Assembly (NCBI GenBank): GCA_043778225.1
Contig: JAYWGM010000028.1
Span: 44,560 to 108,559, forward strand
Length of the DNA stretch: 64,000 nucleotides
Direction of reading: 5' to 3'
Source of the DNA: Deinococcales bacterium
GTDB taxonomy: Bacteria; Deinococcota; Deinococci; Deinococcales; JAAFIG01
Each line of letters begins with the position of its first letter. Positions within the stretch are counted from its first letter, which is position 1. Below, piece after piece: positions 1 to 1,801 of the stretch. Below the pieces are notes generated by a model. That model was not told the DNA's origin. It was given only the letters and a program-made list of their open reading frames with translations, and ran no database searches. The translations under genes were made by a program, and so were the position numbers.

Positions 1-905
1 AAGGTGTGCAGTCCGACTTCTAAGGCAGACTCGAGTTTGCCATCCAAAAACAGCGCACCTTGGTGATATTCTGGCACAAGCGCATACTCAATCAGTGGCT
101 CAAGCGGCGTGCCTTTGGCAGCTTTGGCAAGCGCAAGCGGCACGTTCAGGTTAGCGGTCTCGAGCATTTCAACTCGAGTAGCCGCATCGAGCATCAAAAG
201 CGTATTGCTGTTGGGCGCAAAAACCGCCACAATTGCCGCACTGCGGCGAACGATGGCAATTTCAGTATCGCCCAATTCAAGTCGGGTCAATTGCACCAAC
301 CACGCTGGATTGGCTGCCAAAATCGCTTCGGCAAGCGGCTTTGGCAGTGGCATCGCCACACCTTGTAGCGCCACTACAATTTCCTCGAGTCCACGCCAGT
401 AAATACGGCGCTGCCCACTTTGCACCAAGTCTTGTACCACTCCGCCGCGAGTCACGACTGCAAATTGCAAGGCAGCAGGGGCAACTTCGACAAAAAATTT
501 ATTCAGCACAACTTTATTTCGCACTTGTGCCAAACGCATTCCAGCCTCGATCATCAAGCCATGTTCGATTTTGAATAGCTCAATTTGCATGGCAGCAAAA
601 CCTTTCCAGTACAAAACTTGGCTGTTTGGCGCAACCACCTCAAGAATTTCATCGCCTCGAGAAACCAGTGCCACTTCAAGTGCGCCCGTTTGCACCACCG
701 CAAAGTGCTTGTTGACCACATCGGAACGCCGCTCGAGTAAAAAATTGGTCAGTTCGTGTTCAAATCGAGTCTCGAGGGCAAAACGCTGGACAGCATAACC
801 TGTGCCATAAACTGTATTCGCACCAGCCTCGAGAATCCGAACAAAACGCCCATGACGGGTCAGAATACCTTTTTCCGTGTCTTTAATCGCAAAATTTTGA
901 ATCAT
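1..905 (-). CDS. Slipin (SPFH/band-7) family protein, N-terminal part; runs off the window edge
   Basis: Not in the ORF track because no stop falls inside the window. Manual translation from the ATG at 905 (GAGG RBS upstream) gives 301 open codons: MIQNFAIKDTEKGILTRHGRFVRILEAG...LVPEYHQGALFLDGKLESALEVGLHT. The repeated V/IxxxExGLLxxxGxxxxxLxxG units match the N-terminus of rtcB-associated slipins. The SPFH domain itself would lie beyond the edge. Confidence 0.75.
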   Translation of the reverse strand, partial: MIQNFAIKDTEKGILTRHGRFVRILEAGANTVYGTGYAVQRFALETRFEHELTNFLLERRSDVVNKHFAVVQTGALEVALVSRGDEILEVVAPNSQVLYWKGFAAMQIELFKIEHGLMIEAGMRLAQVRNKVVLNKFFVEVAPAALQFAVVTRGGVVQDLVQSGQRRIYWRGLEEIVVALQGVAMPLPKPLAEAILAANPAWLVQLTRLELGDTEIAIVRRSAAIVAVFAPNSNTLLMLDAATRVEMLETANLNVPLALAKAAKGTPLEPLIEYALVPEYHQGALFLDGKLESALEVGLHT

Positions 906-925
906 ATAAAACCTCTGGGGTGAAA

Positions 926-1001
926 GCGACCATGCCCGATAGCGACCCAGCCCGTCAGGTGCATCTTTAGGGTCAAGAAGGTGCGTGCTTATGGTCAAGA
1001 A
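926..1001 (+). mobile_element. Two nested copies of a ~38-nt hairpin mini-element (outer 926-941 plus 980-1001; inner 942-979)
   Basis: Outer copy GCGACCATGCCCGATA|GGTGCGTGCTTATGGTCAAGAA is interrupted at its loop by GCGACCCAGCCCGTCAGGTGCATCTTTAGGGTCAAGAA. The same motif recurs at 1334, 53398, 53487 and 53515. Confidence 0.75.
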
Positions 1002-1060
1002 AGGGTTAAAAGGTTAAAAGGTTAAAAGTTAAGGGCAGAACAGTTACTTTTTCCCTTTTT
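1002..1060. repeat. Short tandem AAAAGGTT octamer array with a degenerate complementary arm
   Basis: agggtt aaaaggtt aaaaggtt aaaagtt ... ttactttttcccttttt; same family as 37734-37811. Confidence 0.6.
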
Positions 1061-1067
1061 CTTCTTG

Positions 1068-1259
1068 CCAACCTTATCTCGAGTATTTCGAGTTTCGCAT
1101 GAGCTTTTGGGCGCGTGTTCACTGGCTTGAAGGCGGCTCGAGCCGACGTTCACTCGAGGGTGGCGGTTCAGGTGGGCGAATCGGTGCTTTGTGCCGATAG
1201 GAGACTCGAGGCTTTTGGCTGTACACCCTTAAAGGGCAAGCAACTCGAGACAAAGCTGG
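1068..1259 (-). ncRNA. Candidate ~190-nt structured ncRNA (possibly Y-RNA-like)
   Basis: In minus sense CCAGCUUUGUCUCGAGU (1259-1243) pairs with ACUCGAGAUAAGGUUGG (1084-1068), giving 17 bp with three G-U pairs. Internal hairpins are GCCCUU/AAGGGU, AUCGG/CCGAU and CGGC-UCGA-GCCG. Confidence 0.5.
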
Positions 1260-1291
1260 TGGTGCTTGGGTCAACGATTTTGCTTATCGTT

Positions 1292-1401
1292 TGGTGATTT
1301 ATGGGAGTCGAACCCATTACCGTCAGTTTATAAGCGACCCTGCCCGCGAGGTGCGTCTTAGGGTCAAGAAGACTGATGCTCTAACCAGTTGAGCTAAAAC
1401 C
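1292..1401 (-). tRNA. tRNA-like gene 3 (Ile-UAU-like), with a 37-nt insertion in the anticodon loop and a 5-bp acceptor stem
   Basis: GGTTT-TA-GCTC AACTGGTTA GAGC-A-TCAGT C[37 nt]TTATAA ACTGA-CGGTA-ATGGG TTCGACT CCCAT-AAATC-A-CCA. Confidence 0.8.
1334..1370 (+). mobile_element. 37-nt mini-element inserted in the anticodon loop of tRNA-like gene 3
   Basis: GCGACCCTGCCCGCGAGGTGCGTCTTAGGGTCAAGAA; removing it restores the 7-nt loop CTTATAA. Confidence 0.8.
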
Positions 1402-1402
1402 T

Positions 1403-1507
1403 TGGTAAAAGATGCAGGATTTGAACCTGCTTGCCCGTTTGGGCGCTCGAACAGTCGTTTGTGCGACTGCAACCCGAGTGCGTTTATCCAGTATCCGCCA
1501 ATCTTTT
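1403..1507 (-). tRNA. tRNA-like gene 2 (class II, Leu-like body) with an extended hairpin in place of the anticodon loop
   Basis: 7-bp acceptor AAAAGAT/ATCTTTT plus A-CCA; D arm GCG GATACTGGATAAA CGC; anticodon stem CTCGG/TCGAG enclosing 23 nt (GTT GCAGTCG CACAAA CGACTGT); variable arm GCCC AAAC GGGC; T arm GCAGG TTCAAAT CCTGC. Confidence 0.8.
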
Positions 1508-1508
1508 G

Positions 1509-1591
1509 TTTGATGAAAGGAATCGAACCTTTGACCTCTCGAGTGGTCAGTCAAATGACCAGCCAAGCGCTCTACCCCTGAGCCACATCAA
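1509..1591 (-). tRNA. tRNA-like gene 1 with an extended anticodon arm and no encoded CCA
   Basis: 6-bp acceptor TTGATG/CATCAA; D arm GCTC AGGGGTA GAGC; stem CTTGG/TCGAG enclosing 20 nt (C TGGTCA TTTGAC TGACCA C); AGGTC; T arm AAAGG TTCGATT CCTTT. Confidence 0.75.
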
Positions 1592-1607
1592 TTTATCTTT
1601 GTGCGAT

Positions 1608-1677
1608 ATGCAAGGTAAGCAGGGCTTATTTGCATCAGCGAGGCTATGCAAACCTCTGACCACGGCACGTGATGCAA
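1608..1677. promoter_or_regulatory. Candidate operator: four ATGCAA/TTGCAT half-sites upstream of the tRNA-like array
   Basis: ATGCAA at 1608, TTGCAT at 1630, ATGCAA at 1646 and 1672; includes ATGCAA-N16-TTGCAT and TTTGCAT-N10-ATGCAAA. Confidence 0.4.
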
Positions 1678-1801
1678 AAAGTGTACTCGAGAAGTCAAAA
1701 AAGTCCATGACTGATTTGGCTTACGCCAATGTGCCAATCGTCACGTTTAGCAAGCTGGTTTTTTCACGTCTGACAGAGGTAGTATACCGTATACTCGAGC
1801 C

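Follow-up and report, generated by a model that had tools for sequence, protein, structure and literature searches.

The closest described counterpart of the locus analyzed here is b7a-tRNA (short for band 7-associated tRNA), which was predicted in 2016 by Burroughs and Aravind beside the genes for Band-7 and RtcB proteins and is called unvalidated in a section of a later preprint (bioRxiv 10.1101/312249). A related set of genes is known from Anabaena PCC 7120, where, according to sections of two reports (PMC10272220, PMC8421152), the absence of TrcR derepresses an array of 26 tRNA genes, the slipin gene alr0740 (42-fold) and rtcB (77-fold), and chloramphenicol induces all of them. In this work we analyzed a window of 64,000 nt from a Deinococcales bacterium (NCBI GenBank assembly GCA_043778225.1, contig JAYWGM010000028.1, positions 44,560 to 108,559 of the forward strand), which carries at its left end, on the minus strand, three tandem tRNA-shaped genes upstream of a slipin gene. 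This cassette matches the predicted b7a-tRNA system, by the description of that system only. On balance, the locus is probably a band-7-associated tRNA cassette in a Deinococcales form that stands alone and has three units, and its stress transcript would supply non-decoding tRNA-shaped partners of a soluble slipin oligomer. The three-unit form, the rate comparison for the anticodon and the candidate regulon described below are new.

The features of the locus are given in window numbering. Comparisons within the genus comprise 8 loci from 7 distinct genomes (L102 equals L021 and was counted once), that is, the present genome and 6 relatives.

1718..1736, minus strand: operator-like spaced inverted repeat with the core GCKTA-N6-9-TAMGC; left half degenerate in this strain, function putative
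1709-1706, minus strand: conserved CATG after the operator-like repeat, from the alignment with relatives
1680..1685, minus strand: likely -10 hexamer TACACT, unchanged in 7/7 same-genus genomes
1599..1669, minus strand: element 0, a two-helix structured RNA of ~70 nt at the head of the cassette, from profile and covariation
1509..1591, minus strand: t1 (unit A), tRNA mimic with a 6-bp acceptor and without CCA; Rfam tRNA score 44.6 bits
1562-1543, minus strand: hairpin extension of the t1 anticodon arm, 20-nt loop, from the parse
1403..1507, minus strand: t2 (middle unit), tRNA mimic with a long variable arm, a 7-bp acceptor and CCA; Rfam tRNA score 31.0 bits
1473-1451, minus strand: extended anticodon arm of t2, 23-nt loop, from the parse
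1292..1401, minus strand: t3 (unit B), tRNA mimic with a 5-bp acceptor; Rfam tRNA score 39.9 bits
1371-1328, minus strand: 44-nt loop of t3, a canonical 7-nt loop split by a repeat, as judged from relatives with 7-nt loops
1333..1369, minus strand: 37-nt copy of a genome-wide mobile hairpin repeat within the t3 loop, from repeat searches
1068..1259, minus strand: 3' structured domain, from the consensus fold of 7 genomes
1259-1243 with 1084-1068, minus strand: 17-bp long-range helix closing the 3' domain, from the consensus fold
925..1000, minus strand: nested copies of the t3-type mobile repeat in the slipin leader, from repeat searches
1..905, minus strand: 5' part of the slipin gene (ATG at 905, 504 aa in full), Pfam Band_7

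A conserved cassette with a drifting anticodon

The order of element 0, one to three tandem tRNA-like units in normal tRNA order, a structured 3' domain and a slipin gene was found in Deinococcota, cyanobacteria and proteobacteria by examining 15 Deinococcota loci, which come from 15 of the 301 sampled genomes and include that of the window, together with the best 80 among 421 confirmed slipin loci of a species collection. A middle unit of the t2 type was seen in the Deinococcota loci only. The first-pass annotation of this DNA, made by a model from the sequence alone, had placed the three units correctly on the minus strand but missed the start of the cassette, since element 0 lies upstream of t1. 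A profile of element 0 matches 69 of 90 slipin upstream regions and no shuffled sequence, and the model R1 has a single match within the window, whereas no Rfam family matched the element. Among 46 diverse copies, pairing over the 13 pairs of the element amounts to 96.8%, and 7 of these pairs show two-sided changes; none of 500 shuffles reaches this covariation (slid controls pair at 30-52%; kinship can inflate such values). The model also gives weak matches (E 0.007-0.04) in four rtcB-linked loci outside its training set.

At the other end of the cassette, the 3' domain is more stable than its shuffled versions (z = -2.63, 3/200 shuffles), and its consensus in the 7 genomes has two-sided changes in 9 of 56 pairs, three of them in the 17-bp closing helix. 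One small hairpin present in the 6 relatives is missing from this strain. Together with the Pfam assignment of the slipin, these results bear out the earlier description of a structured segment followed by a slipin coding sequence. The spacer between the cassette and the slipin start codon varies by hundreds of bases among loci.

All three units exceed the Rfam gathering score of 29 bits, and our parser reproduced the loops of 20, 23 and 44 nt and the acceptor stems of 6, 7 and 5 bp assigned to them before. Of the RNA tools then proposed as checks, the Rfam models thus score every unit, but ARAGORN with default settings finds t1 and misses t2 and t3. Folded alone, t2 forms a cloverleaf with z = -3.95 (0/200 shuffles), while t1 and t3 are not significant (z -1.33 and -1.59). 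The two units that terminate in CCA, as had been noted, are t2 and t3; the CCA of t3 results from a deletion of ~8 nt private to this strain and is absent at t3 in 6/6 relatives.

To compare the units across phyla, we surveyed the 69 loci with element 0 (48 first and 64 last units, assigned partly by hand with one loop hand-corrected, half of the last units being cyanobacterial), the other 21 slipin loci being left out. First units are heterogeneous, with loops of 4-20 nt, a 7-nt loop in 21/48, a full acceptor in 32/48 and an encoded CCA in 23/48. Last units have a 7-nt loop in 59/64 with 19 different triplets, of which CAU is the most frequent (20), and a full 7-bp acceptor in 4/64; among the 59 with a 7-nt loop, U33 is present in 52, A37 in 45 and U36 in 46. 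The cloverleaf of the last unit is nevertheless maintained: in 40 sequences, 93% of the cells are paired, 15 of 21 pairs show two-sided changes (0/500 shuffles) and the D stem is nearly invariant; the two outermost acceptor pairs are disrupted in 25 and 19 sequences, respectively.

Within the genus, t3 has 6 different anticodons in 7 genomes. Their pairwise identity of 48% (three sites only, hence rough) compares with 54% at 102 four-fold degenerate slipin sites, whereas the t3 body is 91% identical and loop positions 32, 33, 37 and 38 are 100% identical; the tRNAs of the 26-gene array described below keep their anticodons in the 6 same-genus genomes compared. Since the t3 cloverleaf covaries but the anticodon within it changes at a neutral pace, the third unit is likely not to decode. 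The same is likely for the cassette units in general, as had been proposed from their shape, given the neutral anticodon and the loops of 20, 23 and 44 nt. A 7-bp acceptor and an encoded CCA, taken together as marks of a decoding tRNA, are combined only in t2, and CCA is encoded by 62 of the 68 tRNAs that ARAGORN finds in this genome. Programs for tRNA detection label such RNAs as ordinary tRNAs with arbitrary anticodons.

Several variants of the cassette were observed. In L079 the gene order is rtcR, cassette, slipin, one open reading frame (ORF), rtcB and rtcA, and the last unit of the cassette is capped by GNRA; a GNRA tetraloop ends the anticodon arm of the last unit in four rtcB-linked loci (L079, L083, L097, L099), all of them among the 21 outside the unit survey. 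These four Burkholderiales loci also have a sigma-54-type promoter motif and an expanded-loop element 0 upstream of slipin and rtcB. L063, L080 and L092 each contain element 0 in two or three copies, and in several proteobacteria (L031, L042, L054, L059, L068, L082, L087, L088, L096) a long tRNA array ends in the cassette. Most of the cyanobacterial loci L028, L029, L039-L047, L051, L052, L058 and L093 carry near-identical CAU anticodon arms on both mimics, possibly by gene conversion or as a VapC-type decoy, and a 1:72 mismatch, reminiscent of initiator tRNA, is frequent in their last unit.

Enlarged anticodon arms and a mobile repeat

The enlarged anticodon arms, which had been put forward as the defining functional feature of the three units, are not conserved and are local to the strain or lineage. 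The 37-nt insert in t3 is absent from 6/6 relatives, all of which have a 7-nt t3 loop, and the BLAST alignment is interrupted at the insert in 5 of them. As a 38-mer query, the repeat has 60 copies in the genome at up to 7 mismatches (0 for 3 shuffled queries), and a profile gives 127 matches genome-wide. CT stands directly 5' of 61 of the 86 parsed copies; the t3 loop begins with C-U, the preferred target, and the insert sits right after it. The insert recurs in the slipin leader (925-1000), where no nested repeats were seen in the relatives' leaders examined. The GUC/GAC core reported for all three arms is present, but t3 has GAC before GUC, opposite to the order in t1 and t2, and its core is part of the repeat. 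Contigs of two DNA runs, possibly from the source of this genome, are identical over 949-1800, so the t3 insert is not an assembly artefact; they carry an extra 36-nt piece of nested repeat at 956-958 relative to the assembly.

The short hairpin form of the repeat, its more than 100 dispersed copies, its nesting and its insertion into other hairpins resemble those of REP-like or miniature mobile repeats, to which we presume it is akin, and this nature accounts for the t3 arm. Elsewhere in the genome (more than 100 sites), the repeat, 37-39 nt long, is also nested, both within its own copies and within other palindromic repeats, and mostly follows CT. It was not seen in the examined flanks of the single Y1 transposase of the genome.

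In t1 and t2, whose states in the genus alignment were read by eye, the extensions vary in a different manner. The t1 arm is extended in 2 of the 6 relatives (20 and 14 nt), ends in a 7-nt loop in 3 and belongs to a degenerate unit in 1; in one relative, the stem of the extension is preserved through a change from A-U to G-C. The t2 extension occurs only in the sister genome G189 (22 nt, stem kept; 73% support for this grouping in the slipin tree), and the other 5 have a short loop. Because the shared extensions keep their stems, an extra helix is tolerated. Across phyla, loops longer than 8 nt were found in 4/48 first units and 1/64 last units. The t1 and t2 arms are thus tolerated variation and the t3 arm a recent lesion, none of them adaptations, and the t3 of this strain may be a damaged allele.

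Slipin, RNA-repair genes and a shared promoter motif

The slipin gene, on the same strand ~390 nt downstream of t3, encodes a Band_7 protein (Pfam PF01145, E 2.8e-26). It reaches C28:43951, 609 bases past the window edge, and is adjoined by a convergent MarR gene. Its nearest named relatives, among the best 80 of the 421 loci, are from Deinococcales metagenome genomes (81%). The AlphaFold2 model of the protein (predicted local distance difference test, 87) has beta-rich repeats over ~310 residues, an SPFH domain and a long C-terminal helix; no membrane helix is predicted or apparent, in this model included. In Foldseek searches, the top matches are stomatins, which cover the SPFH part; alignments to major vault proteins span 563-657 columns (best E 2e-11, 12-13% identity, root mean square deviation ~15). 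The Pfam scan found no vault family. In the predicted structure, the architecture fits the layout of the major vault protein, with beta repeats, an SPFH-like shoulder and a long cap helix, but the template modeling score of the alignments is low. This likeness agrees with a second-hand statement, in part of PMC13404743, that bacterial vault-protein homologues and their operon RNAs are implicated in RNA repair.

The RNA-repair genes expected downstream by the first-pass annotation lie elsewhere in the genome. No RtcB is present among the ORFs listed in the downstream 14 kb, which include a protein kinase and cytochrome-type genes. The sole RtcB of the genome is encoded on contig C80 (C80:46466-49252, L004), with an N-terminal MJ1316 domain and an intein-like internal insertion that appears strain-specific, since the rtcB frames of relatives have ~570-590 aa. 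The sole TROVE/Rsr gene is on contig C19 behind an array of 26 tRNA genes (C19:9937-14525), whose promoter carries the operator-like motif of the cassette and which has orthologous arrays in 5 same-genus genomes. Just upstream of rsr (C19:9213-9476, L143), two tRNA-shaped genes with very large anticodon inserts were observed. A pattern for the Y-RNA-like signature occurs twice at C19 and is absent in the slipin cassette. The C19 pair with this signature is kept in relatives and, rather than the slipin cassette, provides the candidate Ro ligands of the genome.

A strict sigma-70 scan found no site at the cassette promoter, where the relatives have a spaced inverted repeat, CATG and an invariant -10-like hexamer. 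A profile built from six relatives' slipin promoters ranked the tRNA-array promoter second genome-wide, after that of the cassette itself, and a weight matrix ranked it first; the array promoters of relatives retain the motif. The full pattern has 11 hits in 8 genomes, namely 5 cassette and 6 array promoters and none elsewhere, compared with 1 hit for the reversed pattern. The core also stands before rtcB in 2 of 5 relatives, or 4 of 5 with one position widened, where ~0.001 would be expected per 130 nt. The candidate operator would thereby join the cassette, the spare tRNA array and rtcB despite their separate gene locations. The tie of the cassette to slipin and RNA repair, which had been suggested from general knowledge of slipin genes, is thus retained, by way of the homologous loci and the shared promoter motif, which link it to translation-stress genes as well.

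Competing explanations and comparison with known systems

The reading that we favor, a stand-alone band-7-associated tRNA cassette, can be extended to a mechanism in which the expression, processing, binding and benefit of the RNAs are inferred from the genomic data. Upon damage to translation, a regulator acting at the shared motif would switch on the cassette, the 26-tRNA array together with the Y-like RNAs and rsr that belong to it, and in all probability rtcB as well. Element 0, the three tRNA mimics, the 3' domain and slipin would be made as one transcript. Its RNA, either intact or cut to tRNA-sized pieces, might display tRNA elbows on a vault-protein-like slipin cage; display of the elbow is suggested because the D and T arms are the invariant part. 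The displayed elbows would dock or titrate elbow-binding enzymes, such as tRNA nucleases and RtcB, so that the tRNA pool would be buffered and kept intact beside the spare array and RtcB. Slipin is in this sense likely to be a stress-induced helper of bacterial RNA repair. We regard as doubtful, if attractive, a fuller version in which a vault-like slipin cage with polycistronic tRNA-mimic RNA is co-induced with the array, the Ro/Y-RNA unit and RtcB by a Deinococcales regulator, and the last mimic serves as a free-anticodon nuclease decoy. If this is true, the vault ribonucleoprotein would have an equivalent in bacteria whose defined job is to protect tRNA.

Several observations weigh against the favored reading. 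Genes for rtcB were found in the fetched flanks of only 15 of 76 homologous loci and rsr in none of the 76. A 7-nt U-turn loop is retained in the last unit at a far higher frequency than would be needed if only the elbow were bound. The alignment with vault proteins is weak, with a template modeling score of only ~0.3, and the comparison with Anabaena, as far as the cited sections of the reports go, concerns the slipin gene alr0740 and not an RNA cassette beside it. For the regulon, the second rank of the array promoter in the unbiased profile has only E = 0.087, the reverse profile from 3 array promoters failed to recover the slipin promoter, and the full pattern with its 11 hits was written post hoc from both promoter sets, in kin that are not independent. 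The slipin and rtcB promoters of the window's own genome miss the strict core, which precedes rtcB in 2 of 5 relatives, and in 4 of 5 only after widening one position.

The main rival, which is possible at most, takes the last unit as a sacrificial decoy for anticodon nucleases, with a cleavable CU-NNN-AA loop that RtcB re-seals and a triplet that either tracks or ignores the nuclease; in the t3 of this strain, the repeat would have abolished this function. The frequent 7-nt loop of the last units with its preferred U33, U36 and A37 and the prevalence of CAU agree with this, as do the invariant loop flanks of t3 within the genus and the cleaved array tRNAs of Anabaena, proposed as nuclease sponges in a section of PMC8421152. 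However, a GNRA tetraloop caps the arm in four rtcB-linked loci, first-unit loops range from 4 to 20 nt, the triplet diverges at the neutral rate with no excess, and the YrlA RNA of Salmonella is uncut by the SOS nuclease according to part of PMC7790460. Next comes the proposal, which we find improbable, that the 600-nt region as a whole acts in cis, as a leader which controls slipin in response to translation stress or a tRNA-binding protein and is never released as separate RNAs. All parts indeed sit behind a single likely promoter and ahead of the slipin start, the sole terminator-like match on the minus strand is the T arm of t2 itself, and the short acceptors would presumably make poor processing substrates. 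Yet every unit has an acceptor stem that is closed within the unit and covaries, CCA is encoded in 23/48 first units as expected of released RNAs, the spacer to the start codon differs by hundreds of bases, and no attenuator was seen.

Three further explanations have little to commend them. Decay of tRNA pseudogenes left by an old array had been foreseen as the outcome if the arms proved unconserved, and this strain does show lesions (the t3 repeat, the deletion after t3, the lost hairpin, the degenerate operator half), and tRNA arrays adjoin some proteobacterial loci. The arms are unconserved, but the cloverleaf is under strong selection: the unit body is 91% identical against 54% at neutral sites and compensatory changes (15 of 21 pairs) extend across phyla, so that decay is largely refuted for the family, which makes this explanation very unlikely, and may be limited to this strain's t3 alone. 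Equally remote is the idea that the units are Y RNAs of the YrlA type, circularly permuted and arranged in tandem, which bind Rsr and merely look like tRNAs with giant loops. It could draw on the presence of rsr in the genome, on the Y-type signature of the tRNA-like genes beside rsr, and on a match to the YrlA model across the T arm of t2 and the D arm of t3. This match scores 21.7 bits against a gathering score of 69, however, and ordinary tandem tRNAs score as high as the cassette. The normal order, as first described, pairs 6.2 of 7 acceptor positions against 2.3 of 7 for the permuted hairpin (35 loci; the parser slightly favors the normal order), and with no Y signature in the cassette and rsr in 0/76 flanks, the earlier suggestion of Ro ligands was given up. 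The least credible of all is that the arms are mini-introns, excised by a nuclease and sealed by RtcB to yield working tRNAs. The t3 insert follows U33 and its removal restores a canonical 7-nt loop, and ARAGORN, when introns are allowed, assigns Gly, Cys and Ile, but the insert belongs to a DNA repeat that is dispersed in the genome and targets CT, and in relatives free of the insert a near-identical 5-bp acceptor goes with scrambled anticodons, which leaves no faithful decoder. At 37 nt, the insert is also too short for a group I core.

Among the known systems, YrlA (Rfam RF02553) shares with the cassette the mimicry of the D/T-arm elbow, the lack of decoding and the link to RNA repair, but, as described in parts of PMC4201824 and bioRxiv 10.1101/312249, it has a permuted order, a closed acceptor, a Ro-binding stem and an rsr-adjacent gene, none of which is found in the slipin cassette. 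The TrcR regulon of Anabaena resembles the present genome in that slipin, a spare 26-tRNA array and rtcB appear co-controlled, and other cyanobacterial slipin loci examined here carry the same cassette. TrcR uses direct repeats over the -10 element, according to the cited sections, in contrast to the spaced inverted repeat upstream of -10 in our genomes; the same gene grouping therefore exists in Anabaena under another motif.

The b7a-tRNA comes closest. As far as the cited section describes it, it is likewise a tRNA-like RNA that has the normal order and lies directly upstream of a Band-7 gene; the homologous cassettes in rtcR-slipin-rtcB-rtcA operons such as L079 and the weak vault-protein likeness of slipin are further points of resemblance. 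In the window, the Band-7 gene is adjacent and the resemblance to tRNA in normal order extends to all three units above the Rfam gathering score, whereas RtcB is not adjacent, which makes the locus a stand-alone variant and not the canonical operon. It further differs in having three units instead of one, an operator-like motif shared with the tRNA array and strain-specific arm insertions; element 0 and the 3' domain are not mentioned for b7a-tRNA in the cited section. To the b7a-tRNA prediction, this locus adds the full boundaries of the cassette, from element 0 to the 3' helix, and a measurement that points to selection on the loop frame and elbow of the last unit but to neutrality of its anticodon, and it shows the enlarged arms to be ordinary products of tolerated hairpin growth and a mobile repeat.

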